Shown in pieces: positions 2,714-63,690 of a stretch of DNA of 64,000 nucleotides. Location of the stretch: NCBI GenBank assembly GCA_963785845.1, contig CAWAWP010000001.1, forward strand, positions 313,132 through 377,131, read 5' to 3'. Each line of letters starts with the position of its first letter. The stretch's first letter is position 1. The DNA comes from an uncultured Chloroflexia bacterium (lineage in GTDB: Bacteria; Chloroflexota; Ktedonobacteria; Ktedonobacterales; JADMIN01). The notes beneath the pieces are model-generated. The model made no database searches. It saw only the letters and a list, made by a program, of their open reading frames with translations, and was not told where the DNA came from. The position numbers were made by a program, and so were the translations under genes.

Positions 2714-3439
2714 CTACGCCGGCACCTGGATTGGAAGCATGTAGCCGACGCCGACCTTTGTGACGATGCGGCGCGGATATGCAGGGTCCTCTTCTATCTT
2801 TCGGCGCAGGCGGTTGATGTTGACCTGAAGCATATGGCTCTCGCCGCTATATTCGGCGCCCCAGACGTGTTCGAGCAGCAGGTCTTGCGTAACCACGCGC
2901 CCCGCATTCCGCATGAGATAAGCGAGCATGCGATATTCAGTTGGCGTGACAGCTACCTCGACGCCGTTCAACAGCACCAGGTGTTGCGCGTAGTCTACGG
3001 TGAGGTCGCCTACCGTGCCGACGGAGCTGAGACCTTGGGCTGCGATCGACTCGCCGAATTGCGAGCGCCGCAGCACGGCGCGCACCCGTGCCAGCAATTC
3101 ATCGACACTGAACGGCTTCGTCAGATAGTCGTCCGCGCCGAGATCGAGTCCTTGCACCTTATCCTGATCTTGGCCGCGCGCCGTGACGATGATGATCGGG
3201 AGGGAAGAGAATTCGCGGACGCGGGCACAGACGGCGAACCCGTCGAGTCGCGGCATCATGACGTCGAGCAGCGCCAGGTCGGGTGCCTCCGCCTGGATCT
3301 GTTCCAACGCCTGTTGACCGTCGCTTACCGCGACGACCTCGTACCCTTCTAACTGGAGGTTGCGCGTTATCAGGCGGAGCAACTGTGCATCGTCGTCCGC
3401 GACCACAATGCGTATCTTCTTCGCTGGCATGGTGTTCAC
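2714..3439 (-). CDS. OmpR/PhoB-family response regulator (receiver + winged-helix DNA-binding domain)
   Basis: Receiver motifs: IVVADDD, LLDVMMPRLDG, LTKPF. C-terminal winged helix: LTPTEYRMLAYLMRNAGRVVTQDLLLEHVWG. It lies directly downstream of a histidine kinase on the same strand. Confidence 0.9.
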   Translation of the reverse strand: MNTMPAKKIRIVVADDDAQLLRLITRNLQLEGYEVVAVSDGQQALEQIQAEAPDLALLDVMMPRLDGFAVCARVREFSSLPIIIVTARGQDQDKVQGLDLGADDYLTKPFSVDELLARVRAVLRRSQFGESIAAQGLSSVGTVGDLTVDYAQHLVLLNGVEVAVTPTEYRMLAYLMRNAGRVVTQDLLLEHVWGAEYSGESHMLQVNINRLRRKIEEDPAYPRRIVTKVGVGYMLPIQVPA

Positions 3440-3514: not shown

Positions 3515-4435
3515 TCACTCTTCATGCGCTGTGGCGTCGTCGGCGCGCGGCAACACGACACGGAAGGACGCACCGTGCCCTGGGCTGCTCTCTGCGCTCA
3601 GTTCGCCGTCGAGGCGCGCGACAATTTCCTTGCAGATCGCCAGACCCAACCCGAGGCCCTCGGTTGTCCGCGTTGCCTGGTTGTCCACGCGTTGGAAAGT
3701 CTCGAAGATGCGCCCGAGATGCTCGTCTGCGATGCCGATGCCCTCGTCTCGGACGGTGAGTTGGATGGCGGGGCGTAGCGCATCTGCCCCAAGGTGGCCT
3801 GGCGCAAGCGCGATCTCGATTACGCCTCCGACGGGAGAATACTTGATGGCATTCTCGATGAGATTATCTATCACGTCACGAAGGTATCGCGCGTCGCCAA
3901 GCACGAGTCCATTGGCGACGGCCAACGTCTCTGGGTGCTGGCTGATCACGAAGACGCATCGCTGGTGTTCGTCGACCGCCGATGCCAGGCGGCGCTCGGC
4001 TGCGGCAACCGCTTCGCGAACCACGCGCGCCAGCGAAATCGGCTCATGGGCGAGGGTGACGAGGCCCAGTTCGAGCTGCGACAATTCAAGAATGCGTCCG
4101 ACGATGAGCGTGAGGTGGTCGCTCGCTTGATCGATTGCATCGAGAAACTCTTTGCGTTCGGCACCCGACAGGCGCTTCTCGTGCCGGCGAAGGGTCGCGG
4201 CGTAGCCTTTGATGGCGGCGAGCGGGCTGCGCAACTCGTGGCTGATGACGTTTAGCAACTCGGGTGAAAGTCGCTCGGGGTGCTGCGCGCGCTCGACCGA
4301 AGGATTGGCATGCTTGTTCGCGTCGAGGGCGCTGGCGTCGCCCTGGATGATGGCCCGCCCTTCGGCGGTGTCAGGAGAAATCGCGCGGGCGGTCTTTGAC
4401 GACCCATGCGGGAACGGCTGTCGAGTGTCACCCAT
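3515..4435 (-). CDS. Histidine kinase with no recognisable transmembrane or sensor domain
   Basis: H-box ISHELRSPLAAIKGY. ATPase N/G boxes DNLIENAIKYSP, DEGIGI and GLGLGLAICKEIV. The ORF track extends to 4615; I trimmed to ATG 4435, preceded by GGGGAGGAGGATAGGAGC. Only about 90 aa precede the H-box. Confidence 0.85.
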   Translation of the reverse strand: MGDTRQPFPHGSSKTARAISPDTAEGRAIIQGDASALDANKHANPSVERAQHPERLSPELLNVISHELRSPLAAIKGYAATLRRHEKRLSGAERKEFLDAIDQASDHLTLIVGRILELSQLELGLVTLAHEPISLARVVREAVAAAERRLASAVDEHQRCVFVISQHPETLAVANGLVLGDARYLRDVIDNLIENAIKYSPVGGVIEIALAPGHLGADALRPAIQLTVRDEGIGIADEHLGRIFETFQRVDNQATRTTEGLGLGLAICKEIVARLDGELSAESSPGHGASFRVVLPRADDATAHEE

Positions 4436-4672
4436 GCTCCTATCCTCCTCCCCTCGTCGCGGAAAGCGCATCTGCCCGGTGGCGGCGCTACCTCTTGCCT
4501 CGATGATAGTGGCAAGGCGGTCACGCGCTGAACACGCCGTGCGACGATGTGTCTCATACGCGTCACAGTGCGAGGTGACTGGCGCGGTGGACCGCAACGG
4601 GGTGAGCACTGGCAAGCTTCCGCCGCACCTTCAAGGTCCAGGTGAGGGGGGTGCAAGAGGGTGTCGCCAACT

Positions 4673-5007
4673 AATTTCCGTTTTCTTCCGCTTTTTTATG
4701 CCCCGCGTGGGTTCAGCGGTGAATTCAACGGAGGAATGCCGTCAGAAGCGGAAATATCGTGACAGGCGGAAATTTCGCCGCGCATGTGCCACGCTGGTGG
4801 GAAGGGCCGTACCGTGCAGGGGGCGAACACGTTGGGCGATTGACTGGGCGCGCACTGCGAAAGTCCTGTGCTGGGGCATGCGAAGGTGCCTGTGGGGGAT
4901 GATGAAGGGGGTGATGAGGGGCGATGGAAGGTAGGAGGAGGATCGGTGGAAGGACAAGCAGAAGATATGTTCTATTGATTTGTACCACACGCGGAGATAC
5001 ACCGCAA
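4673..5007 (-). ncRNA. Candidate structured leader or sRNA, paralogous module copy A (promoter, operator, conserved blocks, invariant 20-mer)
   Basis: On the minus strand: TTGCGG (5007..5002), 17 nt, TGgTACAAA (4987..4979). The palindrome AGAACATATCTTCT (4973..4960) sits at the predicted TSS. Block-wise similarity to 17288..17599. The invariant 20-mer 4673..4692 pairs with CGGAA repeats at 4746..4753 and 4767..4774. No convincing ORF is conserved between the two copies. Confidence 0.4.
4960..4973. promoter_or_regulatory. GAAC-N4-GTTC-like palindromic operator with one mismatch (AGAAGATATGTTCT)
   Basis: Near-palindrome read directly from the sequence. It starts 5 nt downstream of the predicted minus-strand -10. 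It resembles the Cheo-box class of LexA sites (GAAC-N4-GTTC). Confidence 0.4.
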
Positions 5008-5215
5008 GGGTGAGATCTCGGATAGTCCCGTAGTCGCTGCTCGGAGAGGATCGCCGGGCCGATATGTTACGGAATCTGGATGGATCGCGCTTTCGGTTGT
5101 GGAGACGCTACGGATTTTGCCGGCAGCATGGTGTGGGCGTTCGCCGGACGCACCTATGGGAGAGTCGAGATCCGAATACATGGGGCGCGAGTCTGATCGA
5201 GCGGGCGCAGGCGCG

Positions 5216-5244
5216 TTGACAGCGCACTAACCGGACACTACAAT
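5216..5244 (+). promoter_or_regulatory. Sigma70-type promoter TTGACA-17-TACAAT
   Basis: TTGACA at 5216..5221, a 17-nt spacer, and TACAAT at 5239..5244. It lies about 125 nt upstream of the 5369 start. It shares the flank GCGCGTTGACA with the thr promoter at 17662. Confidence 0.6.
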
Positions 5245-5368
5245 GGGCGCGACCGCCGGGAATTCTCCGTCTGCGGCGCTGGTGTAGCGCGAAGAGTGTT
5301 TTCGGACGTTGCTTGTGGGCATATGGCGCCGCTGGACCGCGCTCACCGCCCGCCAAGGAGCCCTTGTG

Positions 5369-6472
5369 ATGAGTTCGTTTTCTCAACGTCCGGACACGTC
5401 GTTTCCGTCACGCATGGGTGAAGCGCCTGAGCAGGGCGCATCTCAGGTCAGCGCGTGGCTGCGTCTCGCAAGTTGGGGATGGCAGTATCCGCTGCACACC
5501 GTTGCCGACCGCGAGCGGGCACGCCGGAGCCGCTTGGCCGCGTGGGTCATTTTAGGGCTGTTCATCGCCGATGCGGTGATCCTGCCCATCGGCATTGGAG
5601 ATCCTGGTTCAGAAGCCGCCGTCTTGATTCTCGCCGTCGGTCTGGTGGGCGCGGTGCTGCTCAACCGCGGTGGGCATGTCGGCCTGACGGGCGCGCTGAT
5701 CTCCGCGCTGATCATTCTCGCCGCGACGGGCGCCGTGGTCGCCTATCCGCTGGGGCTGACGCTCGATGCGCTGCCGGCGTTCGACCTGCTAGCCATCGCC
5801 ACGGTGATCGCCGCATCGGTGCTGCCGCGGAGAGCAGCCTTTGTAGTCGCGGCGATCAACATCGCGTTGATCGTGGCGGTGTTCTTCTTGATGCCGCACG
5901 CGGTAGATTTGCGGACTGAACTCAACGACAAGACGCTCTATCCGACACCGCTGGTGGCGAGTCTGGCACTGCTCGCCCGCCCGATCGCCTTGCAGGTGAT
6001 TCTCGCGGTGGTGGCCTACCTATGGGTGCGCGGCACCGACGATGCGATACGACGTGCCGACCGCGCCGAAGAGGTGGCTGCGCTAGAACACACCATCGTT
6101 GAGCAGAAGCGGCAACTCGACATCGGCATCCAGCAGATCTTGCAGACACATATTCGCGTGGCGAACGGCGACTTCAGCGCGCGCGCGCCGCTCGGCCAAG
6201 ACAACATCTTGTGGCAGATCTCGTCGTCGCTCAACAATTTGTTGGCGCGGCTGCAACGCTCTGGAAACGCGGAATATCGCATGCAGCGCACCGAGGAGGA
6301 ACTGCAGCGGTTGGCGGCGGCGCTTCGCGACGCGCAGGCGGGACGGCGCCCCATATGGCCAGCGCCGTCAGGAACGGCGGTCGATCCAGTCATCGAAATC
6401 ATCACCGGCGCCAACAGACGATCGCTGCCGCCGCAGTCATCGGTGGACAGGGATATGGAGAACTATCGCTAG
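5369..6472 (+). CDS. Polytopic membrane protein with a C-terminal HAMP-like/coiled-coil segment and no output domain
   Basis: Several hydrophobic helices, e.g. LAAWVILGLFIADAVILPIGI and AFVVAAINIALIVAVFFLM. A HAMP-like stretch follows: IRVANGDFSARAPLGQDNILWQISSSLNNLLARLQ. Start trimmed to ATG 5369 after AAGGAG; the ORF track begins at 5309. Confidence 0.55.
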   Translation: MSSFSQRPDTSFPSRMGEAPEQGASQVSAWLRLASWGWQYPLHTVADRERARRSRLAAWVILGLFIADAVILPIGIGDPGSEAAVLILAVGLVGAVLLNRGGHVGLTGALISALIILAATGAVVAYPLGLTLDALPAFDLLAIATVIAASVLPRRAAFVVAAINIALIVAVFFLMPHAVDLRTELNDKTLYPTPLVASLALLARPIALQVILAVVAYLWVRGTDDAIRRADRAEEVAALEHTIVEQKRQLDIGIQQILQTHIRVANGDFSARAPLGQDNILWQISSSLNNLLARLQRSGNAEYRMQRTEEELQRLAAALRDAQAGRRPIWPAPSGTAVDPVIEIITGANRRSLPPQSSVDRDMENYR

Positions 6473-6535
6473 CGGACCCTCGGCGCACTAGAAGCGGAAG
6501 GAGCTGCAACTTGCACCCGGCCATCGCGACCAAGG

Positions 6536-8442: not shown

Positions 8443-8614
8443 CGCAGCAGCACCGCTGGCCGCGGTGCGGCTCTGCCTCTCTGGGAGATCGACGCACGAA
8501 TTCTCGCACGGTTGTCGCCGCGCTGGTGAACACATTGGGCGGAGGGGTACGGCGGGCGGCCCTTGGCACCGCCGCCGTGTTGTCGCTCACTTGATCGGCG
8601 CTGCCAGGTGGGGT

Positions 8615-9127: not shown

Positions 9128-9162
9128 TGGCGACGAGCGCGCTGCGGCGCCGTCTGGCGGGG

Positions 9163-9621
9163 TTACTCGGTCGAAACCGCGCTGGTCGAGTGATCGGCGT
9201 CGTCCGCCTCGGCGTGGGACGCTGACTCGTCCACGGGGGGCGCGGCCACGTAGGCGTCACTTTCGCCCCAGGTCGGGTGGGGAGCGTATTCGCGGTAGAA
9301 GCGCCGCCCAAGTCTCCAGCCGATGTTAGTGCAGGCGATGATCACCACGGCGAAGACGGCCACCAGCACGAACACGTTCGCAAATCCGGTGATCCCGTGA
9401 TAATAGGTGTAGAGACCGACCAGTTTCGCGGCAAAGCCTCCGAGAAGGCACGCCGCCATGAGGCCTAAGAGGCAGCCAAGGTAGCCGCCGTGCGTCGGCC
9501 AGTCGTAGCCCGGTGGTACGGCGCCTTCATAGCGCTCGGGATGCGGTGGTGCAGCGGCGACGACCTGAGGGGACTCAGGGTCAGCCGGGTGTTCTTCGGG
9601 TGCGTTCTGGGAATCGTTCAC
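9163..9621 (-). CDS. Small membrane protein with two predicted TM helices
   Basis: TM segments GGYLGCLLGLMAACLLGGFAAKLVGLY and FANVFVLVAVFAVVIIACTNIGW. The ORF-track start (9795) overlaps the upp 3' end, so I trimmed to in-frame GTG 9621. The start remains uncertain. Confidence 0.5.
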   Translation of the reverse strand: MNDSQNAPEEHPADPESPQVVAAAPPHPERYEGAVPPGYDWPTHGGYLGCLLGLMAACLLGGFAAKLVGLYTYYHGITGFANVFVLVAVFAVVIIACTNIGWRLGRRFYREYAPHPTWGESDAYVAAPPVDESASHAEADDADHSTSAVSTE

Positions 9622-9658: not shown

Positions 9659-10363
9659 TCAGCGCGTGCCGAACTGGCGGTCGCCCGCGTCGCCCAGTCC
9701 GGGGCAGATGTAGCCGCGCTCGTCGAGCCGGTCATCCAGCGCCGCGAGGTACACCGGGACGTCGGGATGTGCCTGGCGGAGCTTGAGCAGCCCATAGGGC
9801 GCGCCGATCAGCCCAATATAGCGGAGGTGCGGAACCTGGTGACGCTTGAGCGTGTTGAGCGCGTCGATGGCGGAGCCGCCGGTGGCGAGCATCGGATCTA
9901 CTGCAAAGCATACCTGGAGGTTGACCGCACGCGCCAACTGATTGTAGTACTCGATGGGTTCCAGGGTGCGCTCGTCACGACGCAGGCCCAGATGCCACAC
10001 GGACGCGTCGGGGAGCACCTGGCGGAAGCCGTCGGCCAACCCAAGGCCGGCGCGCAGTATCGGCACGATGCCGACGCCTCCACTCAGGCGCTGTGCTTCG
10101 GTGGGTTCGAGAGGCGTCTCGATAGGTGCGATCTCTGTGCGGAGGTCGAGGGTTGCCTCGTAGGCCAGCAGCGTCCCCAACTCGCGCACCAGACGATAGA
10201 AGTCGGGCGCGGTGGTGTGTTTGTCGCGGATCAGCCCTAGCTTGTGCGCGACGACGGGATGCCGCGAGATGTGCACACCCGGCAGTGAGGCGGTCTCGTC
10301 GCGCGTGGGCTGTGCGATTCCGCGCATGGGGAACGCGGGATCGGCCGCTTGGGGGTCGGGCAT
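9659..10363 (-). CDS. upp: Uracil phosphoribosyltransferase
   Basis: Characteristic strings HPVVAHKLGLIRDK, ILRAGLGL, DPMLATGGSA and ICPGLGDAGDRQFGT. Start trimmed to ATG 10363 after AGGAAGGTGG; the ORF track begins at 10534. Confidence 0.9.
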   Translation of the reverse strand: MPDPQAADPAFPMRGIAQPTRDETASLPGVHISRHPVVAHKLGLIRDKHTTAPDFYRLVRELGTLLAYEATLDLRTEIAPIETPLEPTEAQRLSGGVGIVPILRAGLGLADGFRQVLPDASVWHLGLRRDERTLEPIEYYNQLARAVNLQVCFAVDPMLATGGSAIDALNTLKRHQVPHLRYIGLIGAPYGLLKLRQAHPDVPVYLAALDDRLDERGYICPGLGDAGDRQFGTR

Positions 10364-14159: not shown

Positions 14160-17077
14160 TCAACCGCTCAACTGAAAAAGCAACGTCTGAATCTCGCCGC
14201 CACGCAGTCGCGTGCGTACTCCAGTGCTCAAGATGCGTGCCAAAGGGTTTGCCTCAGTTTGCGGGGCCACATCTTCCGCCAAGGTGACGCGGGCGACTTC
14301 GTCGAAGGGCAGCGCGAGGATCACTTCGGCATCGGCGCTGGTGCGAGACATGTTGACGAGACGCACCACCAGTCCGCTGCCGCGTTCCGCCCGCTTGACC
14401 GCGCTTACCATGACACTCCCCGGCGAGACGTGCACGAAGCTCCACAGCGCCGGCAATGCGCCGCTGTGCTGCTCACTGGCGAAGGCGCGGAGTGGGGCTT
14501 GATAAGCGTGCGCTTCGTGCAGCACAAGGGCGTCTTCGGCGTCCCACGCGCCGGCATGCGGCACGAGCGCATACTCGAAGACGTGGCGGCCGAGACCTTG
14601 CGCCGCTGGGGTATGGAGCGCCGGTCCGGCGTGTCCCCGGCGCGTGGCAAGGTCGTCACGAGACAGCCACTCGACGCAGCGCAGCAAGGTGAGCGCCAGC
14701 GCGCTGGAGTTGCCGTCGGCGAGTGTCAGCGACTTCGTACTCTGGCAAGCCGCGATTGAGCAGCGCCAGCCCGGCTGTGCCGTCGCTGAGATCGACGAAG
14801 CGCTGTTGGGGGTGGGTGTCTACCGGCGCTTCGATCCACTCGGACCAGGGTGGCTCGCCCGGCTTCGGCTCTTGGCGAGCGGGGCGGCGCGTGACGCAGA
14901 AGGCGTCTTCGGCGTCTGCGTGCTGGGCGACGAACGGCACTGGGAAAAGCATGCGAAGGCGGTGGTCGCGCGCGGCGTTCTCAACGGTGGTGCGGATCTC
15001 CACGCGGCGGGCGCCAGCGGTCAGCGAGATGTCTGAGGTGATATCGCAGCGCGCGAGCTCGCTGGAGCGCGACGAGCGATCGGCGGCGCAGGCGGCAGGC
15101 AACATATACGTGTTGGTGACACGAAGGGTCGCCCGCGCGGGGCCGGTTTCAAGCAGTTGCAGGCGTGGCGGCCATGCCGGAGCGTCTATCAGCCGTATCG
15201 TGCGCTGGCGGGGAGTAGTTGTAGAGGTCGCCGACGTCGCCCGTGTCGCGCACGTGGTTGAGACCTGCGTACTCGCGCCCGGTGCGCTTGTCGTAGAGCG
15301 TGAAGGCGCCGCTCTGCTCATCGACCGTGAGGCGCAGATGGGCGTTTTCGAGCGAGCTTTCGCTGGCGAGCACGCTGCGGCTGAGCGGACCCGTCTCGAC
15401 GAGGCGGCGCGCGCCATCCGCATCGGCGACGTGTCGCGGTCGCAGGAAGAGCACGCGGCCGCCATGCGGGGGAACGTCGCGCGCGAGCAGCAGTATTTCG
15501 GACTTCTCGGCCTCGCGGGCGACGACATGGAACATGGTCACCTCGGGGCGTTCGAGCAGCGCCTGGATGCGCGGGAGCAACTGCGCTACGACGGCGAGGT
15601 TGGGCGAGACATTCTGTGAGACGGTGAGGAAGAGATTCGCGGTGTCTCCGGTCGGCGGGACATCCAGGTGCGCGTCGAGGATGGCGTAGCCCAGGGCACG
15701 ACCCTCGCTCGCGGTCCCGATGGTGCCAGCGACGAAGTCCTTGTCGATACGCTCGTCGAGGAGCACGCTGCCGCGCGACGAAAGCGCCTGATAGGGCAAC
15801 TCGCGCCCCTCCGCATCCACCAGTTCGGCGTCGGGGGAAAGCAGCACGACCTCGCAGCGCGCGACGTCTGTGCGTGGACCGCTGGCGGGGTTGAAGACGA
15901 CGATTGGCGTCGCGCCTTCGGGCCCGCGCGTGTCAACCCGATGCGAGAGGGAGGCAAGCGACTGCGTGGTCACTGCCTCGGCGATCTGCTCGCTCTGCGC
16001 GAAGCGAGGCAGCATCTCGGCATGGACCTCGTCAATACCACAGCCGCAGATGCTGTCGTGGGGGTGGTTGTGCAGCAGGTGACGCCAGGCAATCGAGAGC
16101 AGGCCGGCGGGGTAGCGATCGCCGAGCGCCCAGGCCCAGGTAGCGGCCGGCTCGGCCAGGCGCGTCAGTAGCGCCTCGCACGCGGCGTTGCGCTGCTTAA
16201 GCCACATACGCGTCGAGAGCACGCCAGGCAGCAGATGGGCGGAGTGGCTGCTGCGAAATTCGCCAGCGTGCCGAGGAAGCGGCTGCTGCGCGTGGCGGAG
16301 GCGGTTGATGTAGTCGGGCAGTGTGCCGATGGCGATGTCGATGCCGTCGGCGGCGAGCAGGTCATTGGCGCTGGCAATGGCGTTCGGCAGCCCCGGTTGC
16401 GGCTCGATGTGGTCGGTGCCGTTCATCAGCAGCGACGTGTCTATCGCGGCGCGCGCCGCCATGCGGGAGGCGATGCGACGCGAGCGCGCGGCGAGCGACT
16501 CTGGTTCGAGCGGCAGCGCGGCGGCGTTGGAGTAGCCGAAGTCGTCGTAGAGCCAGGCGACGAGCACTTCGCTGCCGTCGGGCGCGGACCAGATGAAGGC
16601 GCCGCGTTCCATGCCCGGTGGCACGCCGCGCCAGAAGACGGCGTTGTCGATGCCGAACCCGCGCAGGATCTGCGGCAGTTGCGCGATGTGGCCGAACGTG
16701 TCGGGGACGTAGCCGACGGGCATGACGCCGCCGTAGGCTTCACCCATGCGCCTGCCAACAAGCAGGTTGCGTACGAGAGATTCGCCGCCGACCAGGAATT
16801 CGTCGGGTTGGAGATACCACGGCCCGATCTGCAACCGGCCTTCGCGGGCGAGGCGGAGCAGTCGGTCGGCGTTTTCGGGGCGCACTTCGAGGTAGTCTTC
16901 GAGGACGATCGTCTGTCCGTCGAGCATGAAGTAGGTGAAGCTGGGATCGGCTTCCAGCGTGTCGAGGACGAGGTCGACGGTGCGGACCAAACGCATGCGG
17001 AATTGTTGGAAGGTGAGGTACCACTCGCGATCCCAATGGGTGTGGGGCACCACCAACAGGTGTGTCTCGGCGGCCAT
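14160..17077 (-). pseudogene. GH38 alpha-mannosidase interrupted by two frameshifts (three reading frames)
   Basis: Frame A (17077 to about 15200) starts VVPHTHWDREWY and has HPHDSICGC. Frame B (about 15200 to about 14735) has DHRLRMLFPVPF...GLALLNRGLPEYEV. Frame C (about 14735 to 14160) has ALALTLLRCVEWLSRDDL...HAGAWD. The three pieces are collinear with a normal GH38 protein of about 970 aa. Start trimmed to ATG 17077 after GCAGGAGC. Confidence 0.75.
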
Positions 17078-17287
17078 GCTGCTCCTGCATCGCTTCGTGT
17101 CGTAAGCGCGACGCCCGAGTGTCGCGCGGTGGTGGATGCCGCGACTGAGGCGTTCTGGCAAGTATAGCGCATATGCGACTCCGCCGCACGACAGGGAGAC
17201 CTACCGGAGAGTTTGGCACGCGGTTGGGCTGATGTTCTCTTCCACTGGCGGCTGGGTCGCGCCGCGGAAGACAATCGGCACTTCAAC

Positions 17288-17599
17288 AATTTCCGTTTTC
17301 TTCCGCTTTTTCGTCGCGATCGCGCCGCTGGCTATCGGGCCGGCCCCCGCGCAGGACAACGACGGAGGTGGCGGAAACGGAAATGAGGACACAACGAACA
17401 GTTAGGACTCGCGCGCCAAGAAGGTCAACGATGCGGCGCGATTCGCGACAGAGATGACATAGGTGGTCATGGCGATACTTTACCGGGCCGCACGGCAACA
17501 TCTGGCGAGCGGAATGGAGGTGAATGTTGGGGCGCCGGAGAGAACAAGAAGAACATAAGTTCTAAGGTAACTCTACCACACGCATGGCGTCTGCCGCAA
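17288..17599 (-). ncRNA. Candidate structured leader or sRNA, paralogous module copy B
   Basis: On the minus strand: TTGCGG (17599..17594), 18 nt, TGgTAGAGT (17578..17570). The perfect palindrome AGAACTTATGTTCT (17563..17550) follows. Conserved blocks are shared with 4673..5007. The invariant 20-mer 17288..17307 pairs with GGCGGAAACGGAAAT at 17370..17384. Confidence 0.4.
17550..17563. promoter_or_regulatory. Perfect GAAC-N4-GTTC palindrome (AGAACATAAGTTCT), a Cheo-box-like operator
   Basis: Perfect inverted repeat read directly from the sequence. It starts 6 nt downstream of the predicted minus-strand -10. Confidence 0.45.
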
Positions 17600-17661
17600 G
17601 CAGGGAACTTGCATCCGAGGAACGAGTACTGGCAGGCGAGAAAGACTCTACATAGGGCGCG

Positions 17662-17690
17662 TTGACAAGTGCTTGGAGCTTCGCTATAGT
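17662..17690 (+). promoter_or_regulatory. Sigma70-type promoter TTGACA-17-TATAGT for the thr leader/operon
   Basis: TTGACA at 17662..17667, a 17-nt spacer, and TATAGT at 17685..17690. The leader ORF starts about 50 nt downstream. Confidence 0.65.
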
Positions 17691-17741
17691 GGTGGCACCG
17701 CCAGCGCTTCGTGGAGCTTGGCGCCGCATTGAGGGCTTTCG

Positions 17742-17798
17742 ATGAGCAACGCGCGGAACATCACCACTGCCAGCACCACTACCACCACCGGTGGGTGA
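17742..17798 (+). CDS. Thr-rich leader peptide MSNARNITTASTTTTTGG (18 aa) of a thr-operon attenuator
   Basis: ATG at 17742 is preceded by GAGGG at a 6-nt spacing. Seven of 18 codons are Thr (ACC/ACT) and one is Ile. The TGA stop at 17796..17798 lies just upstream of a GC-rich hairpin followed by a T-run. Confidence 0.7.
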   Translation: MSNARNITTASTTTTTGG

Positions 17799-17823
17799 GG
17801 GCGGCGCGCTGTTGTTGTTGGGC

Positions 17824-17860
17824 AAGCCGACCCGGATTGTACGGGCCGGCTTTTTGTTTG
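17824..17860 (+). terminator. Intrinsic terminator (attenuator) between the leader peptide and thrA
   Basis: Stem GCCGACCCG (17826..17834) pairs with CGGGCCGGC (17842..17850) with one mismatch. The loop is 7 nt, and TTTTTGTTT follows the stem. It lies about 60 nt before the thrA ATG. Confidence 0.65.
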
Positions 17861-17921
17861 CCTTGCGGGTCGAAGCTAACGTCGTTCGTGCTGGTCGGCG
17901 GCGAAGACGAGGTGCCGGGTT

Positions 17922-20378
17922 ATGCGGATACTTAAGTTTGGCGGTTCGTCGGTTGGCTCGCCTGACGCCATACGCCGTGTTGCCGCGATTGTGAGGCGCG
18001 CGCGCGACGAGCGGGGCGAGGTGGTGGTCGTGGTTTCCGCGTTTCAGGGCGTGACCGACGACTTGATTGCGCTTGCGCGACGCGCGGCAGGCGGCGAGCC
18101 GTATCTCGCGCAGTTCGATGCGCTCCACGAGCGGCATGTAACCGTGATGCGGGAGCTGCTGCCGCACGACGTGTGCGCTACGGCGAACGCACACCTGACG
18201 CAGCGCGCGCATGAGTTGGGCGATCTGCTCCACGGCGCGGCGCTGACGCATGAACTGTCGCCGCGACTGCAAGACGCGATCGTGAGCTTTGGCGAGCGAC
18301 TTTCCGCGTACATCATCGCCAGCTTTCTCTCGACGCAAGCAGTACCTGCCGCGTACCTCGATATGCGCGATGTCGTGATCACGGACGCCCAGTTCGGCGC
18401 GGCGCGGGTCGAACGCGAGATCACCTACGGGAAGATACGCGACCATTTCGCCGGTGCCGTGGCAGTACAGGTCGCTACAGGCTTCATCGGTGCGACGGCG
18501 GAGGGTGAGACGACGACGCTGGGGCGTGGCGGCTCAGACTACACGGCATCGCTGCTCGGCGCGGCGCTGGATGCCGAAGAGATCGAGATCTGGACCGATG
18601 TGGACGGCGTGCTCACCGCCGATCCGCGCAAAGTGCCGGAAGCGTTCGCGCTCGACGCGCTCACCTACGAGGAAGCGATGGAACTGGCGCACTTTGGCGC
18701 CAAAGTGATCTACCCACCGACGATTCAGCCCGCGTTGGTGCGCGATATTCCGTTGCGCATCAAGAACACCTTCCGGCCGGAACTTCCCGGCACCGTGATC
18801 GCGAGCCGGCGCGGCCTGTCGACGCACGCCATCACCAGCCTCACGTCGATAAGCTCCATGGCGTTGCTGCTGGTGCGGGGCAGCGGCATGATCGGCGCCG
18901 CCGGCATCGCGATGCGGCTCTTCGGTGCGCTGGCTCGCCAGAGGGTCAGCGCGATCCTGATCACGCAGGCGTCGTCGGAACACACCATCTGCGTCGGCGT
19001 CGATCCGGCTTCCGTGGCGGCGGCGGTCGCCAGCGTCGCCGAGGAGTTCGCGCTGGAGATGCGCGCCGGGTTGATCGAGCCCGTGGACGTGCGTAGCGAC
19101 TGCTCGGCGGTGACGATCGTCGGCGAAGGCATGCGCGAACGTCCCGGTATCGCCAGCACGCTTTTCTCGGCGCTCGGCGAGCGGCACGTCAACGTGATCG
19201 CCATCGCACAGGGGTCGTCCGAACTGAACATCTCGGTGGTCGTCGATCGACGCGACGAGGTGACGTCGCTGCGCGCGATCCACGAGGCATTCTTCGCGCC
19301 GGAGCGGCGACGTCTCAATCTCTTCTTGCTGGGCACCGGGCTGATCGGCGGCACGCTGCTCAAGCAGATCGCCGCGGTGGCGAGTACGCTTCGCCGGGAA
19401 CGCCACCTCTGTCTGCACGTCCGCGGCATCGCCAATAGCCGTCACGCACTCGTCGATGCGGGCGAAGGAATCGACCTGGCTACATGGGACGAGGCGTTGC
19501 AGGCGAGCGACGCGCCGCTCAATCTGGAGACGTTTATCGCGGAAGCGATCCGCTTGCGTGCGCCAAACAGCGTGTTGGTCGACTGCACGGCGAGCGACGC
19601 AGCACCGCAACACTACGCAGAGGCGCTGCGCGCGGGGTTCGCGGTGGTCACGGCGAACAAACGCGGCCTCACCGCGCCATTTGCCGACTATGCGGCACGG
19701 CGCGACGCGGCGCGGCTGAGTCACGCGCCGTTCCGCTATGAGACGACCGTCGGCGCGGCGCTACCTGTGCTGGGCCCGTTGCGCGACTTGCTGGCGACGG
19801 GCGACACGCAGATTGCCATTGAGGGCGTGCTTTCGGGAACGCTGAGCTACGTGTTCAATACGTTCGACGGCACACGGCCATTCAGTGAGGTGCTGCGGTC
19901 AGCACAGGACGCGGGCTACACCGAGCCCGACCCGCGCGACGACCTCAGCGGTACGGATGTCGCGCGGAAGCTGCTCATTCTTGCCCGTGAGTGCGGCTAC
20001 GCTCTGGAAATGGGCGACGTGGCGGTAGAGCAGTTTTTGCCGGCGCGTTGCCGAGAAGCGCCCGGCGTCGACGCCTTTTACGAAGCACTCGCCGCCGAGG
20101 ATGCGTATTTCGAGCGGCTGCGCGCCGACGCCGCGCGGGAGCAGTGCGTGCTGCGCGTCGTCGCGCGGATGCGGGAAGGCAGGTGCTCCGTGGGGCTTGA
20201 ACAGGTCCCGCGAGACGCACCTTTGGCGCATCTGAGCGGGGCAGAGAACTGTGTCGCTATCACCTCCGCACGCTACGCAGCGCAGCCGCTGGTGGTGCGC
20301 GGGCCAGGTGCGGGCGCGGAGGTGACGGCAGGCGGCGTACTCGCCGACATACTACACGTCGCCGAGTGCGGGCGATAA
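17922..20378 (+). CDS. thrA: Bifunctional aspartokinase / homoserine dehydrogenase
   Basis: N-terminal kinase motifs MRILKFGGSSVGS and LGRGGSDYTA. ACT region. C-terminal HSD part: LLGTGLIGGTLLKQI, VVTANK, GAGAEVTAGGVLADI. 818 aa. Confidence 0.9.
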   Translation: MRILKFGGSSVGSPDAIRRVAAIVRRARDERGEVVVVVSAFQGVTDDLIALARRAAGGEPYLAQFDALHERHVTVMRELLPHDVCATANAHLTQRAHELGDLLHGAALTHELSPRLQDAIVSFGERLSAYIIASFLSTQAVPAAYLDMRDVVITDAQFGAARVEREITYGKIRDHFAGAVAVQVATGFIGATAEGETTTLGRGGSDYTASLLGAALDAEEIEIWTDVDGVLTADPRKVPEAFALDALTYEEAMELAHFGAKVIYPPTIQPALVRDIPLRIKNTFRPELPGTVIASRRGLSTHAITSLTSISSMALLLVRGSGMIGAAGIAMRLFGALARQRVSAILITQASSEHTICVGVDPASVAAAVASVAEEFALEMRAGLIEPVDVRSDCSAVTIVGEGMRERPGIASTLFSALGERHVNVIAIAQGSSELNISVVVDRRDEVTSLRAIHEAFFAPERRRLNLFLLGTGLIGGTLLKQIAAVASTLRRERHLCLHVRGIANSRHALVDAGEGIDLATWDEALQASDAPLNLETFIAEAIRLRAPNSVLVDCTASDAAPQHYAEALRAGFAVVTANKRGLTAPFADYAARRDAARLSHAPFRYETTVGAALPVLGPLRDLLATGDTQIAIEGVLSGTLSYVFNTFDGTRPFSEVLRSAQDAGYTEPDPRDDLSGTDVARKLLILARECGYALEMGDVAVEQFLPARCREAPGVDAFYEALAAEDAYFERLRADAAREQCVLRVVARMREGRCSVGLEQVPRDAPLAHLSGAENCVAITSARYAAQPLVVRGPGAGAEVTAGGVLADILHVAECGR

Positions 20379-41709: not shown

Positions 41710-42000
41710 GTCTCTGTTTCTCCTCATCATTGATGGATGCGGGGCGCGATCGCGACGCTGCGATCCGCTCCGAGTCGGCGCGTAATGTCTCAGTGCGCGA
41801 TGGGCATAGCGGGCGGTCGCGGCCCCTTCGCTACCGTGAAGCCTACCATTTGACCGCAAGGGACGCAAGCAGCGAGCGGCAGGTGATGCCTCTGTGACAC
41901 CGCGTCGTGTCAGGGTGGCGCCGTAGTTCTTGCGCGTGGCGTCGCTGCTCGCAAGGTTCTCATGTGCTGGTGCAGCGCGCAACATTTTCCTACCAGGAAC

Positions 42001-42020
42001 AATTTCCGTTTTCTTCCGCT
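42001..42020. repeat. Third copy of the invariant 20-mer AATTTCCGTTTTCTTCCGCT
   Basis: Identical to 4673..4692 and 17288..17307, in the same orientation. It lies 292 nt upstream of the pckG start on the opposite strand. Confidence 0.8.
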
Positions 42021-42443
42021 CTTGTAACTGTTCGGGCAGCGTTGCGGAGCAGGCGTAGTATGGGCGCATGATCGCCACACAGACGGATCGCCCGACTCGA
42101 AGCTGAGAACGCGCGGGTGTCGGTGCTGCACAGCGATGAGAACGACGTGCGCCACGCCGGGGCACTCGCCTGGGCGCATGTCGCCACTACCGAGCGGCTG
42201 ACCCGCTATGCCATCCACACCAGGCGCGGGAACGAAACGACGCGCGTCATGGGAGCCTTGCCCCGGTTCCGCTGTGTGAATGTCCACGACGGCTGCGTCG
42301 CCTATCGCGTACACGCCAACTGCCGCCATACGCTTCCACGCTGCGTAAGCAAGGCTCGGCCCTCTTGGCCGCCCGCGAAGCGCTTTTCATCGGGCAGCCG
42401 CTCTACCCCGCGTTTGCCTGAACCATTACTGGAGGTGTCGCCA

Positions 42444-43069: not shown

Positions 43070-43738
43070 TTAGCGGGCAAACAGTTTCCAATGCCCCTCT
43101 GAGACGACCTCGACGGTGCCGTCGACGACTTTGATGGCGGTCTCGTCGTCGATCGCATACGCCGGACCCCCGAGCCCGCCCGCCCATTTTTCTGCGGCGG
43201 CCATGGTGTTCTCCGGCAAATCGGGGTGATCCACATGCGGGAAGATTGAGAAGTCGACGATGCCCAGCGTGCTGTCGTCACCGGTCGGCGGCTTCCAGCC
43301 GACGAAGTCTTCCCCGATACGGGGGGTCATTACCATGCTCCCGGCGCTGAATCCCACCCAGACCGTCTCTTCCAGCGACGGCAGGAGGTCCGCCAGCCCG
43401 GATTGCCGCATCCAATGGCATAGGTACAGCGCGTCGCCGCCATTCACCAGCAGGGCGTCGGTCTCTCGGACCCACGGAACCCAGCGTTCTGCACCGATGC
43501 TAGGCAGCGCGGTGAGCTCGAGCACTCCCAAGGACTTCCAACCCAGCTCGCACATAGGTTGAGCGGACTGTCCGCTGATGAAACGCCATGGCCCGGCAGG
43601 ACTGCCATAGGGGTTTCCGTACCCCGCAGTGGGGATGCAGAGCGCGCTGGAGTCGGCAATCGGTTTACCCAGCAGGTCGACCAGCGCGTTGTGGATGCTG
43701 GTGTTCTTGATGCCAGCGGAAGTGAGCAGAAGTCGCAT
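43070..43738 (-). CDS. Peptidase E-like / S51-family (class-I glutamine-amidotransferase-like) protein
   Basis: MRLLLTSAGI..., LLVNGGDALYL, VWVGFSAGSMVMTP (nucleophile Ser context). Start trimmed to ATG 43738 after AGGAG; the ORF track begins at 43837. Confidence 0.7.
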   Translation of the reverse strand: MRLLLTSAGIKNTSIHNALVDLLGKPIADSSALCIPTAGYGNPYGSPAGPWRFISGQSAQPMCELGWKSLGVLELTALPSIGAERWVPWVRETDALLVNGGDALYLCHWMRQSGLADLLPSLEETVWVGFSAGSMVMTPRIGEDFVGWKPPTGDDSTLGIVDFSIFPHVDHPDLPENTMAAAEKWAGGLGGPAYAIDDETAIKVVDGTVEVVSEGHWKLFAR

Positions 43739-43806: not shown

Positions 43807-43836
43807 TGAAGATATGTTCTAGTCGAGAGTATAGCA
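43807..43836 (-). promoter_or_regulatory. Extended -10 promoter (TGCTATACT) followed by the GAAC-N4-GTTC-like box TAGAACATATCTTCA
   Basis: On the minus strand, TGCTATACT is at 43836..43828. The box is at 43820..43807 (plus-strand TGAAGATATGTTCT). It lies about 70-100 nt upstream of the S51 peptidase start. Confidence 0.45.
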
Positions 43837-60669: not shown

Positions 60670-60745
60670 TGGTAGCGGGGGGCGGACTCGAACCGCCGAC
60701 ACAGGGCTTATGAGTCCCTTGCTCTGCCGACTGAGCTACCCCGCC
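60670..60745 (-). tRNA. tRNA-Met (anticodon CAT; elongator Met or Ile2-type)
   Basis: Minus strand: GGCGGGGTAGCTCAGTCGGCAGAGCAAGGGACTCATAAGCCCTGTGTCGGCGGTTCGAGTCCGCCCCCCGCTACCA. It folds as a 76-nt cloverleaf with encoded CCA. There is one A31/G39 mismatch in the anticodon stem. Confidence 0.85.
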
Positions 60746-60840
60746 AGGGGCGAACAATCGGCTACCGCACCCCACCTGGAGCACGATAGCCGGGAATTGG
60801 TAGCGGGGGGCGGATTCGAACCGCCGACCTCCGGGTTATG

Positions 60841-61489
60841 CTTGCTACTACAGCTTTCGCTGCCCGGCGAACCGGTTTGTAGTCTGGACTTTCCCTTCAC
60901 CCTCGGCGTTACCCGTTAGGGTGCCTCACATCAAGTCTCTACACGTTCCTCAGAGGATTCATCATCCTCAAAGGCTTCGCTCGGGATTACCCTGCCAACG
61001 GCTTCCCCGAATTTGTGAGGTGTTCCTACAGGCGTTTCCCCTGTAGAGCCCATTGTGGAATGAAGTGCCAAGCGTCACGATAGTCGGCAGATTTGGGTTT
61101 TCGCTGACGCTTGTCGGCTTCGACCATGTGAATTTCACTGCCGTAGCCGATGAAAACGTCGCATGGGAAGACATAGAACACATCGACATCGTCGATGTAG
61201 ACGAGAGCAAAATCAAAATCTTCGGCTGAGTACACGCCGCGAATCATCATGCGACGATTCGTTTTCGTCCGACGGTTGTCCACGACATAATTGCCTGACG
61301 GACCATCGAACCAGGCGGATTTCACCTGAATCTTGACGAAAGCACTACCGACTGCAAAGACGAGATCGTATGGCAATCTGTCTCCAACTGGTCGGAGCAC
61401 TCCCCAACCGCGCTTCATCGCCTGAAGCACGGCTGCCTGCTCTGCGATGTCCCCCTTCAGCTTCGTATCCACTTTACTCCACGGAATCG
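60841..61489 (-). mobile_element. Group-I-like intron (between U33 and C34 of tRNA-fMet) carrying a homing-endonuclease ORF
   Basis: The 5' exon ends in U and the intron ends in G. The 3' 185 nt contain CAGACUAC...GUAGU (P7-like pairing), a CCGG-UUCG-CCGG hairpin, a CAGC-GAAA-GCUG hairpin, and GUAGAGACU..GGCACCC. From memory, these strings resemble tRNA-type (IC3) group I introns. Confidence 0.7.
61026..61472 (-). CDS. Intron-encoded PD-(D/E)XK-type homing endonuclease candidate (I-Ssp6803I-like), 148 aa
   Basis: KGDIAEQAAVLQAMKRGWGVLRPVGDRLPYDLVFAVGSAFVKIQVKSA shows a D...QxK restriction-fold core. The ORF lies wholly inside the intron if started at GTG 61472. The track ORF runs on through the tRNA exon to 61664, which cannot be real. 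Confidence 0.7.
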   Translation of the reverse strand: MDTKLKGDIAEQAAVLQAMKRGWGVLRPVGDRLPYDLVFAVGSAFVKIQVKSAWFDGPSGNYVVDNRRTKTNRRMMIRGVYSAEDFDFALVYIDDVDVFYVFPCDVFIGYGSEIHMVEADKRQRKPKSADYRDAWHFIPQWALQGKRL

Positions 61490-61533
61490 AGCCCGACGAG
61501 CTAACCACTGCTCTACCCCGCGTCGCAGAGGGG

Positions 61534-61562
61534 ATTGTACCATCGCCGCGCGGTGATGTCAA
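61534..61562 (-). promoter_or_regulatory. Consensus sigma70 promoter TTGACA-17-TACAAT driving the tRNA-fMet/tRNA-Met pair
   Basis: On the minus strand, TTGACA is at 61562..61557, the spacer is 17 nt, and TACAAT is at 61539..61534. The tRNA 5' end (61522) lies 12 nt downstream of the -10. Confidence 0.7.
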
Positions 61563-61742
61563 CGCACCCCCACTCCGACAGCTCGCCTCCGTCCGCGATT
61601 TCACCTCCCCGCGCGTGGGGAGTGACAAATGGGGAGTGATAAACAGGTGGTGGCGGGCATACACTGACGTATCGACGATTCGCGGATCCTCTGCGGATTC
61701 ACCACAACACGTGTTGCGCTACCAGATCCAGGAGTAGTACGT

Positions 61743-62210: not shown

Positions 62211-62529
62211 AGGCGAGCAGTCGCGCCACCGGGAGAGAACTCCCCGCCCATGCGCCCCATCCACTGGCCCCGCTTCACCCAGCCTCCTTCACCCAGCCCG
62301 CTTCACCCGCTCTCAACGGAAGCAGCAACCGCCGCCGTGCGCGTACCCAAAGCCACATAACCCTTGCGTCCACCATCGCTCAATGCTATACTGCCACCAG
62401 AACATATGTTCAATATGCCGCCGCCCCCCCACACCCCACGCGCCTCCTCCACCCCCCCATCGCCGCACCCGTCCCGCCTCCTTCCCCCGCAGATCCAGCC
62501 CCGAGAAGGACCCGCCAAAGGAGCCATCC

Positions 62530-63690
62530 ATGCCTGCCCGCCACAATCCCCTGGCCGCCTCCACCGACGATCCCGTCGCCGTCGACGAGCCCCAACTCAC
62601 CCTGCGCGATCGCGCCTTCGCGCTGCACTGCCGCGGCCTCCGCTCCGGTGAGATCGCGCAGCGCCTCAACGTCCCGGCCCGCACCATTCGCTCCTGGGTC
62701 GCCGCCCAGCTCACCGCCACCGACGCCGAACGCGCCACCTCCAGGCGTCACCTTCGCGCCCTCGCCGTCGAGCGCCTCCTCTCCGTCGCCGCCGCTTCCT
62801 GGGATGCCTTCGACGTCGTCACCGCCGCCGAGCAAATGCCCTCCACGCTCGACGACTCCACAGCCGACCAACCTGGCGAAGTGGTTCCCGCCGTCGCTGC
62901 CAGCCCCATCTGGGCCGCGGGACTCTCCCCAGCGCGCTTCCTCGCCATCGCCCTCACCGCCTACCGCGAAGTCGCCCGTCTCCAGGGCCTCAGCGTTCAC
63001 CAGATCGCCAATACTGCGGCTGGCCACCCGAACGCCGCCAGGCCATCTCGCGCCAACCCCAACGGCGCCAGGCTCAACGGCGGCAAGCTCGACGGCGACC
63101 TCTCCCACCTCATCCTCATCCCCCCGCCGCAGCCGCCCGCCTTCGTCACCCCCGAACAGCGCTCCGCCTGGCAGACGTTTATCACCCAGTGGGAGCGCGA
63201 CCTCCGGCCCCCAGGAGCGCCCGCGCAGTACCCCGCGTACGAAACCCTGCTTCCCGCCGAAGAAGGCATCCGCCTCCACCTCGAAGCCCAGTCCGCCGCC
63301 CAGTCCGCCGCCCAGTCCGCCGCCGAAGCAACCGCCGAGAGTGCGTCACCCGCGACCTCCGAAGCAACTTCCGACTCCGAGATCACACGTGCCGCCGCGC
63401 CGCTCAGTGCCCCACTTCTGCCCAGTGGTGCCCCCCCAAACGCGGCAAAATTGGCAATACCACGCGTCGCCAGCGCCCAGCATTCCGACGCCGCAGTTGC
63501 CCCCACGCAAAACCCCGCGAATCCGCATCAGCCCGACGCCTCTCCCAGCGCCTCCCATCCACCCGCGCCTCTCCCCGGCGGCGGGGTGTACCCTGTGCCC
63601 CGCCCCATCCGTTGGGAATGGGATCCGGTCCTCGGCGCACCCGTCAAGCGCCGCGATCCCGTCGCCGGTCGTCGCCCTGGCGACACCTGA
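62530..63690 (+). CDS. Pro/Ala-rich protein with an N-terminal helix-turn-helix
   Basis: ATG at 62530 after AAGGAG. HTH-like LHCRGLRSGEIAQRLNVPARTIRSWVAAQL. Low-complexity repeats AQSAAQSAAQSAAEATAESA. The ORF-track 5' extension from 62194 is unlikely to be translated. Confidence 0.55.
   Translation: MPARHNPLAASTDDPVAVDEPQLTLRDRAFALHCRGLRSGEIAQRLNVPARTIRSWVAAQLTATDAERATSRRHLRALAVERLLSVAAASWDAFDVVTAAEQMPSTLDDSTADQPGEVVPAVAASPIWAAGLSPARFLAIALTAYREVARLQGLSVHQIANTAAGHPNAARPSRANPNGARLNGGKLDGDLSHLILIPPPQPPAFVTPEQRSAWQTFITQWERDLRPPGAPAQYPAYETLLPAEEGIRLHLEAQSAAQSAAQSAAEATAESASPATSEATSDSEITRAAAPLSAPLLPSGAPPNAAKLAIPRVASAQHSDAAVAPTQNPANPHQPDASPSASHPPAPLPGGGVYPVPRPIRWEWDPVLGAPVKRRDPVAGRRPGDT

Follow-up and report, generated by a model that had tools for sequence, protein, structure and literature searches.

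Does the gap between a split alpha-mannosidase gene and the threonine operon carry a second copy of a regulatory module, as a first-pass annotation of this DNA proposed, and what would such a module do? In the window (the whole 64-kb stretch of DNA analyzed here, with a G+C content of 65%) the candidate, copy B, is flanked by the minus-strand gene for the GH38 alpha-mannosidase, which is split and broken and has its start codon at 17077, and by the plus-strand thr operon. Its counterpart, copy A, fills the gap between an operon for a histidine kinase (HK) and an OmpR-type regulator on the minus strand and a gene of unknown family on the plus strand. The proteins encoded in the window have their nearest counterparts in metagenome bins of Ktedonobacterales (Chloroflexota). 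The neighboring genes and signals are as follows:

2714-3439, minus strand: OmpR-type response regulator next to copy A
3515-4435, minus strand: histidine kinase (HK) next to copy A, start at 4435
5216-5244, plus strand: consensus promoter of the unknown-family gene beside copy A
14656-15528: C-terminal domain of GH38, a separate ORF
15149-17077, minus strand: N-terminal and middle domains of GH38
17662-17690, plus strand: consensus promoter of the thr operon
17742-17798, plus strand: thr leader peptide, Thr/Ile-rich; an attenuator terminator is also present
17922-20378, plus strand: ThrA

Similarity of copies A and B

We compared the two copies by local alignment with dinucleotide-shuffled sequences as controls. 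For the whole module the observed score was reached by none of 500 shuffles, and the same result (0/500) was obtained for the right block alone. The interior does not stand out in this way, since 70 of 500 shuffles score as well as the alignment of 4790-4940 with 17400-17530, and 31 of 500 as well as that of the stretch directly after the 26-mer of the left block. The roughly 200 nt between the end blocks are no more similar than shuffled sequence. A likeness restricted to the ends is more readily explained by selection acting there than by a recent duplication. What had been called a paralogous module is thus a real and repeated unit with similar end blocks, whereas its interior is unrelated between the copies and there is no paralogy over the whole length. 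The finding is real and beyond chance, and it is narrower than first described: there are two conserved blocks and no paralogous segment of 320 nt.

Promoter and LexA-type box in the right block

The right block measures about 65 nt and consists of a minus-strand promoter of the form TTGCGG-17/18-TGgTAnnnn, followed by a GAAC-N4-GTTC box. Its elements, together with two related units elsewhere in the window, are:

17594..17599, minus strand: -35 hexamer of copy B, TTGCGG, which aligns with the -35 of five other units
17570..17578, minus strand: TG-extended -10 of copy B, TGgTAGAGT, with an 18-nt spacer from the -35
17549..17564, minus-strand reading: putative LexA-type (Cheo-box-like) operator of copy B, TAGAAC-TTAT-GTTCTT
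4959..5007, minus strand: promoter and operator of copy A, with the box TAGAACATATCTTCTG at 4959-4974, TGgTACAAA at 4979-4987 and TTGCGG at 5002-5007
62364..62412, plus strand: promoter plus operator before an HTH gene, TTGCGT-17-TGcTATACT, then AGAACATATGTTCA
43808..43836, minus strand: promoter plus operator before a peptidase S51 gene, TGcTATACT, then TAGAACATATCTTC

The minus-strand promoter predicted earlier for copy B, TTGCGG (17599-17594), 18 nt and TAGAGT preceded by TGg (17578-17570), was found as described. Aligned on the minus strand, copies A and B have in common CTTGCGG, a spacer of 17/18 nt ending in GCGTGTGgTA, 5 nt, and TAGAAC-wwww-(G/C)TTCT. The block can moreover be aligned position by position with four others (TTGC.., TGnTA.., 5-7 nt, TAGAAC-wwww-GTTC), and the promoter prediction gains weight from the fact that this arrangement of -35, TG-extended -10 and box is found six times across about 200 kb of related DNA. 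In all six units TGnTA is conserved, the box spacer is made up of A/T only, and the box starts 5-7 nt past the TG-extended -10. In copy B this distance is 5 nt, and the box would therefore cover the likely transcription start. An nhmmer profile built from the six units retrieves those six alone from the roughly 200 kb of Ktedonobacterales-like DNA, with E values of 1e-9 to 1e-11, and profiles of the left and right blocks gave no further copies in the same DNA.

The right block is not confined to the module: the same promoter and box also precede the HTH gene and the peptidase S51 gene (43070-43738), in both cases outside any module. The unit at 62364 is followed by a C-rich leader of 118 nt, the ribosome binding site AAAGGAG and the HTH gene itself (ATG 62530). 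Because these two aligned units precede ordinary genes with a ribosome binding site, the block behaves as a promoter towards the C-rich strand; the conservation of the promoter elements sets the direction of transcription, which runs towards the C-rich strand. A homology of the module ORFs to the HTH gene at 62530 was considered and rejected, as only the context of the ribosome binding site resembles the copy at locus L025 (see below).

The 14 nt at 17550-17563 had been described as a perfect palindrome. The sequence AGAACATAAGTTCT instead consists of two perfectly inverted halves of 5 nt each (5+5), AGAAC and GTTCT, with ATAA between them, which is not palindromic. The motif GAAC-N4-GTTC is exact in copy B (17551-17562) and has one mismatch in copy A (GAAGATATGTTC), and in a related genome a GAAT half-site is found in two sites. 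It occurs three times in the window against 0.73 expected, a count that is matched by 6 of 100 shuffles and is hence mildly above chance. GAAC-N4-GTTC is the LexA motif of Firmicutes and Actinobacteria, and variants of the motif have been reported in Chloroflexi, for which the review cites a study of Dehalococcoides ethenogenes (PMC4951493). The link to DNA damage that had been suggested for copy B is therefore plausible, the box having the form of the Gram-positive/Chloroflexi LexA site. Judged by its sequence, the assignment of the box to LexA is a well-founded lead.

The units resemble the Cheo box promoters under LexA control (DinR/LexA of B. subtilis) in several respects: the 5+5 GAAC/GTTC inverted repeat, its spacer of four A/T nucleotides, the core GAACATATGTTC at 62400, and a predicted operator that lies over the predicted start, directly downstream of the -10. 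Unlike in LexA regulons, neither lexA, recA, uvrA nor dinB stands behind any of the six sites here, and no lexA or recA gene was found in the window or in the related loci compared. Four boxes per 64 kb are, moreover, dense for a LexA regulon and speak against this assignment.

The left block and its inverted partners

The 20-mer AATTTCCGTTTTCTTCCGCT was read directly at 17288-17307 and 4673-4692, where it had been reported. The window holds three copies of it rather than two, the third being located at 42001-42020 on the same strand. The 20-mer is part of a left block of 26-27 nt, AAC(A/T)AATTTCCGTTTTCTTCCGCT(T/C)TT, which is present three times in the window with an identity of 26/27 nt among the three sites; none of 100 dinucleotide shuffles reached three matches to the 20-mer. 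The distances given earlier, 211 nt from the 20-mer of copy B to the GH38 start and 238 nt from copy A to the HK start, are right, and in four cases a start codon follows 211-292 nt downstream of the left block. Within the 20-mer TTCCG occurs twice, 10 bp apart, and inverted partners, GCGGAAA, sit 55-90 nt from the left block:

17285..17310, minus strand: left block of copy B, 3' arm of the inverted repeat, transcript-strand reading AAAAGCGGAAGAAAACGGAAATTGTT
17311..17362, minus strand: GC-rich variable spacer between the arms of copy B
17363..17384, minus strand: 5' arm of the inverted repeat of copy B, on the transcript strand AUUUCCGUUUCCGCC, then CACCUCCG
4670..4695, minus strand: left block of copy A, 238 nt upstream of the HK start (4435)
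4746..4774, minus strand: partner arms of copy A, on the plus strand AAGCGGAAAT (4746-4755) and GGCGGAAATT (4765-4774)
41998..42023, minus strand: copy C, a left block on its own; a conserved PEPCK promoter follows about 130 nt downstream

Both pairings proposed for copy B, 17289-17296 with 17377-17384 and 17301-17306 with 17371-17376, are exact reverse complements. In the window the pattern TTCCGC-N50-70-AGCGGAA occurs in copies A and B only, against an expectation of 0.06, and none of 100 shuffles reached three occurrences. Copy C has neither a promoter/operator block nor an intact 5' arm, and its left block is missing from the 90%-identical PEPCK locus L027. The persistence of the left block does not depend on the promoter, as copy C shows.

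The 26-mer is identical in the three copies of one genome and different in the relative, and its flanks are unrelated. Invariance within a genome together with divergence in the relative and unrelated flanks suits sequence-specific recognition or gene conversion. On this pattern a purely structural helix would be unsuited, whereas a protein or nucleic-acid partner, or gene conversion, would suit it. Several known classes of element were considered for the left block and rejected. A sigma-54, ECF-sigma or ordinary promoter does not agree with its spacings, which, judged by eye, are inconsistent between the copies; neither strand has the U-tract of an intrinsic terminator; and replication terminus (Ter) sites do not fit, there being no GC-skew switch in the window and the block being tied to a promoter.

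Sequence-specific recognition could take place on the DNA itself. The left block would then be the site of a DNA-binding protein, for example of the OmpR-type regulator beside copy A, and its association with the SOS-type promoter would be secondary. Direct repeats phased by 10 bp are the usual layout of OmpR/PhoB-family sites, and TTCCGTTTTC/TTCCGCTTTT is such a 10-bp-phased direct repeat with inverted TTCCG copies 55-90 bp away. The invariant arms, the existence of copy C as a block without promoter, the position of copy A upstream of the operon for the kinase and the OmpR-type regulator and the recurrent distance to a start codon in the four cases mentioned all agree with this idea. The identity among the three sites, however, is far tighter than is usual for transcription-factor sites. 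At locus L040 of the relative, 521 nt separate the block from the next gene; no block stands before the kinase in the HK/RR homologue loci L039 and L040, and the PEPCK ortholog locus L027 lacks one as well. A DNA site would also not explain why block and promoter keep one order and one orientation in all four full modules. We regard this explanation as improbable.

Modules in a related genome

The relative is represented by loci from sample ERZ25039562, with a ThrA that is 75% identical and an HK homologue that is 59% identical. It holds two further complete modules, at L025 and L040, in the same order and orientation, and the known set of full modules comprises four copies in two genomes. The two modules of the relative are:

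L025, 9150-9205 to 8589-8602: module upstream of the thr leader, like copy B; box TAGAATATATGTTCTC and TGcTATTCT promoter at 9150-9205, left-block variant AATTTCCGCTTTCT at 8589-8602, 560 nt downstream, with the TTCCGC arm 63 nt away
L040, 3735-3784 to 3877-3962, plus strand: module flanked by genes for a TPR protein and an M20 peptidase; promoter, box at 3770-3783 (AGAACATTTATTCT), C-rich stretch, then CTTCCGCC (3877) and AAAAGCGGAAGAAAGCAAATTGG (3941-3963)

For the 14-mer of L025, which is within one mismatch of the 20-mer, the chance expectation in that locus is about 0.007. All four modules have the order promoter, box, variable C-rich segment, TTCCGC, 56-64 nt and AAAGCGGAA(GAAAACGGAA)ATTG. 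The spacing from the TTCCGC arm to the GCGGAA arm is 62-70 nt in each of them, and the distance from promoter to arm ranges from about 106 to 503 nt. An order and orientation fixed in four of four cases points to a conserved unit whose parts are coupled directionally, i.e., through transcription.

Other related loci are without the module. This applies to the PEPCK ortholog loci L027, L028 and L041-L044, to the ThrA locus L026, the sequence of which begins at the gene, and to the HK homologue locus L039; neither at L039 nor at L040 does a left block precede the kinase. Scans for exact 19/20-mers gave one match in genome contigs (Hungatella), 23 in metagenome contigs and 10 in viral contigs, all of which, lying in low-GC or coding contexts, we attribute to chance. 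Among the metagenome matches, L020 has the 19-mer plus CTTTTTCGG and no box, arm or other module feature, and in L019 the 19-mer is inside a coding sequence. Blastn against plasmid and phage collections gave no match.

The dispersal of the module could be that of a non-autonomous mobile element (a MITE or IS remnant) or of the degraded end of an integrative element, in which the 26-mer would be the end recognized by a recombinase or transposase. The module is indeed multi-copy, dispersed and placed beside unrelated genes; the 26-mer, invariant in one genome and different in the relative, could be an element end or have spread recently, and copy C is truncated directly after it. The ends of copies A and B, however, carry neither terminal inverted repeats nor a target-site duplication, the interior is unrelated between copies, and the phage, plasmid and viral collections gave no match. 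A transposase-like stretch beside copy C is without Pfam support, and the idea that copy C is interrupted by an IS66-type transposase fragment was dropped, there being no Pfam match at E<=0.1. Moreover, copy B and the L025 copy are both located next to the thr operon, and the same position at only 75% ThrA identity argues for a long residence. A mobile element is very improbable in our view.

The predicted transcript

Transcription from the right block would run through the variable interior and the two arms. For copy B this interior is:

17385..17548, minus strand: variable interior containing CACCUCC (complement of 17516-17522), not alignable with copy A

The plus strand is rich in GGA motifs, as had been noted (GGAGGTG at 17516-17522, CGGAGGTGG at 17363-17371), and the C-rich minus-strand RNA with CCUCC motifs that had been predicted agrees with the base composition. 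The first 60 nt or so of the predicted transcript of copy B contain 42% C and 14% G, and over the first 50-100 nt the predicted transcripts contain 42-52% C and 6-16% G.

We found no ORF or peptide common to the four modules, and none of the module ORFs has the codon-position GC pattern of real genes (GC2 about 0.48, GC3 0.74-0.87). Gene callers called no gene in the module regions. Even so, the modules could be decayed copies of a gene for a small SOS-regulated protein, a proline-rich/basic or toxin-like peptide, with the left block encoding a KKRKK-type motif. Translated, the left block can yield KKRKKTEI, and copies A and L040 continue with WRHP in one frame. At L040 an ATG with a preceding GAGG lies 23 nt after the box and opens a frame of 152 codons through the block (QKRKKANWRHP); one frame of copy A gives KKRKKTEISWRHP; and in A and B an ATG-started ORF is in frame with KKRKK, with one stop between. 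Long open frames are, however, expected by chance in modules of such C-rich sequence. Beyond the block there is no peptide similarity, the 5' arm falls in differing frames among the copies, and the left blocks of the two genomes differ by a 2-nt indel and, on the preferred alignment, by a 10-nt indel (3 nt on an alternative alignment). Together with the silence of the gene callers and the missing GC1/GC2/GC3 pattern this leaves the small protein as a minor rival that is hardly probable.

The predicted RNAs show no notable stability. The whole predicted RNA of copy A folds no better than shuffles (z +0.85), and that of copy B modestly better (z -2.5). It had been claimed that the helices are kept while their spacing changes. 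The inverted repeat is kept; RNAalifold on the four modules, however, retains only the 7-bp TTCCGC/GCGGAA helix, with 0 compensatory pairs. In copy B the inverted repeat reaches z -3.3 on the plus strand against -0.55 on the minus (transcript) strand; because of G-U pairs it pairs better on the non-transcribed strand. Since the arms are invariant, they provide no evidence for or against RNA pairing. In Rfam 15 neither module has a match at the gathering threshold or at E<=5.

No intrinsic terminator was found on either strand (16900-18000 and 4300-5400), although the organism uses classical terminators such as the thr attenuator. Without a terminator an independent unit is inseparable from a long leader of the next gene. 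C-rich, G-poor untranslated RNA is the composition preferred by Rho (rut sites). As the RNA would be untranslated and C-rich and an intrinsic terminator is lacking, Rho would probably terminate the transcript close to the 3' element or beyond it, and some transcription would continue into the gene that follows.

Noncoding unit or portable promoter

Our preferred explanation, held tentatively and with somewhat less than even confidence, is that the modules form a small dispersed Ktedonobacterales family of noncoding transcription units under LexA-type control with a conserved 3' element. Each unit would start with a sigma-70-type promoter with TG-extended -10 and a LexA (SOS)-type operator, GAAC-N4-GTTC, over the transcription start. 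A variable untranslated segment of 100-500 nt would follow, with a C-rich, G-poor beginning and CCUCC motifs, and then the 3' element proper, made up of TTCCGC, 56-64 nt of GC-rich variable sequence and AAAGCGGAA(GAAAACGGAA)ATTG. In undamaged cells LexA would sit on the operator and block initiation; upon DNA damage the repressor would be cleaved and a C-rich RNA of 200-600 nt would be made. The conserved 3' element may be the selected part, probably recognized sequence specifically by a protein or a pairing partner, beyond its ability to form a helix.

The main rival takes the module as a portable SOS-inducible promoter with a long leader, which would make a downstream gene damage-inducible by read-through, the left block serving as an attenuator or processing site. 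The next genes downstream are the HK/RR operon (copy A), GH38 (copy B), a Meth_synt_2 gene (L025) and the M20 peptidase gene (L040). In 4/4 modules the next gene is co-oriented with the promoter and no terminator lies between, and at 62364-62530 promoter, box and C-rich leader do serve a real gene. The downstream genes are mutually unrelated, as is the case for putative mobile promoters (PMC3488235). On the other hand the leaders would have to span 470-830 nt, and the GH38 gene is broken. Downstream of the left block PEPCK and probably also GH38 have promoters of their own: the PEPCK promoter near copy C is conserved with the 90%-identical locus L027, and a candidate, GTGCGG-17-TATACT, is found before GH38. 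There is no DNA-damage link for kinase, mannosidase, methionine-synthase-like and peptidase genes, and the conservation is confined to the module ends, whereas propagated promoters are defined by high similarity throughout. This reading therefore appears unlikely to us.

Putative mobile promoters have been described as similar promoter-bearing intergenic segments before non-homologous genes (Matus-Garcia et al. 2012, PMC3488235). The modules share with them similar promoter segments with non-homologous downstream genes, here in one genome and a relative. They differ in that only the blocks of about 65 nt and 26 nt are alike, that a downstream element travels with the promoter, and that the similarity is partly explained by an operator design which ordinary genes also use.

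Comparison with known systems

The istR-2/tisB locus of E. coli is a LexA-controlled small RNA/small-gene locus. Like it, the module has an intergenic SOS box and a short predicted transcript and no ordinary annotated gene; unlike it, the module is multi-copy and has no sequence similarity to that locus, toxin ORF, antisense partner or terminator. RoxS/RsaE, LhrC and the csRNAs are C-rich small RNAs of 70-200 nt that pair with Shine-Dalgarno regions and have defined hairpins, intrinsic terminators and Rfam models. The predicted RNAs are likewise C-rich and G-poor with several CCUCC or CACCUCC motifs and multiple copies per genome. They are without such a size, hairpins, terminator and Rfam model, and their C-rich part is unconserved. 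With integron attC sites the modules have in common an imperfect inverted repeat of about 75-100 bp with conserved ends, a variable center and an SOS link. We nevertheless rejected attC sites: the R''/R' core sequences (RYYYAAC/GTTRRRY) are not consistent at the block ends, there is no integrase among the neighbors and no cassette array.

Going one step further than the preferred noncoding units, the modules might be an undescribed Ktedonobacterales family of LexA-controlled C-rich regulatory RNAs acting in trans. Their variable, anti-Shine-Dalgarno-like 5' parts would damp the translation of sets of mRNAs after damage. The invariant 26-nt 3' tag, specific to each genome, would offer a handle to a dedicated partner that binds or processes the RNA, and co-evolution with this partner would keep the tag identical among the copies of a genome. 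We put this forward as an unlikely extension. No regulatory RNA of Ktedonobacteria was found described in Rfam or in the literature searched.

Noncoding loci controlled by an SOS box are a known kind, and no new mechanism is established yet. To our knowledge, hardly anything has been charted of the SOS response in Chloroflexota other than Dehalococcoides. The module is thus a candidate, judged from its sequence, for an SOS-linked noncoding RNA or a portable promoter module in an understudied phylum. Should the modules truly be damage-induced RNAs, the SOS response of a large-genome, actinomycete-like phylum would gain a post-transcriptional arm, and there would be a clean example of a conserved 3' element that accompanies a LexA promoter. 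As portable SOS promoters, in contrast, the modules would show the spread of damage-inducibility to unrelated genes. On either reading the six aligned sites give this lineage its first working model of both sigma-70 promoter and LexA-type box.

Other genes behind the promoter-plus-box design

The arrangement of a promoter followed by a putative LexA-type GAAC-N4-GTTC box is also found in front of two genes outside the modules. At 62364-62530 (plus strand) promoter and box are followed by a 118-nt leader, which is very C-rich (up to 66% C), and then by an HTH gene, whose MerR and terminase-small-subunit-like matches are weak. The same operator design at 43808-43836 (minus strand) precedes a peptidase S51 gene (43070-43738), and an MFS-like gene starting at 43935 is divergent from this unit. 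The HTH unit is located just past the tRNA genes, and it may represent the edge of an integrated element with a damage-inducible regulator.

In the tRNA region (60670-61664, minus strand) we find the following features clustered:

Features of the tRNA region
60670-60745, minus strand, tRNA-Met(CAT)
60798-60840, minus strand, second tRNA-like 3′ half, 86% identical to tRNA-Met(CAT)
60866-61072, minus strand, group I intron (Rfam, 54 bits), adjoined by the tRNA-like 3′ half
61026-61664, minus strand, PD-(D/E)XK endonuclease ORF, overlapping the upstream end of the intron and likewise adjoined by the tRNA-like 3′ half

Beside the solo 26-mer (copy C), the stretch 42117-42335 (plus strand) has a translation, LHSDENDVRH...VHDGCVAY, which is reminiscent of IS66-type transposases. 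This reading is unsupported, as no Pfam match was obtained at E ≤ 0.1.

Motif runs in L040 and L020

In L040, a module-bearing locus of the related genome, the C-rich strand downstream of the module (4020-4280, plus strand) contains four additional (T/C)TTCCGC motifs at 4022, 4110, 4196, and 4272 (intervals of roughly 76-88 nt). The GCGGAA block could pair or bind at these motifs as well, or they may reflect nothing more than composition. The metagenome contig L020 matches the 19-mer by chance; at 6290-6480 it carries an iteron- or operator-like run of five similar motifs of about 14 nt (tacaaaatggtaca, tacatgaaattaca, tacgtaaaactacg, atacaaaattatac, and gacaaaatcgtaca), spaced by about 30-40 nt.

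Genes flanking copy B

On one side of copy B lies the GH38 alpha-mannosidase gene (14656-17077, minus strand):

Parts of the GH38 gene
15149-17077, minus strand, N-terminal and middle domains
14656-15528, minus strand, C-terminal domain

The gene is thus split into two parts that lie in different, overlapping frames, which points either to a pseudogene created by a frameshift or to an error in sequencing.

On the other side, a complete attenuator is present at the thr operon (17662-17859):

Elements of the thr attenuator
Promoter, TTGACA-17-TATAGT, consensus
17742-17798, leader peptide of 18 aa, MSNARNITTASTTTTTGG
17826-17859, terminator of the classical type

The layout is the same in the relative (L025, about 9745-9990), where the leader reads ...QTTAITITTTTGW. 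The Rfam Thr_leader model, which was built on proteobacteria, matched the attenuator only with E=0.13. It has the appearance of a Thr-leader attenuator in Chloroflexota that is either independent or strongly diverged.
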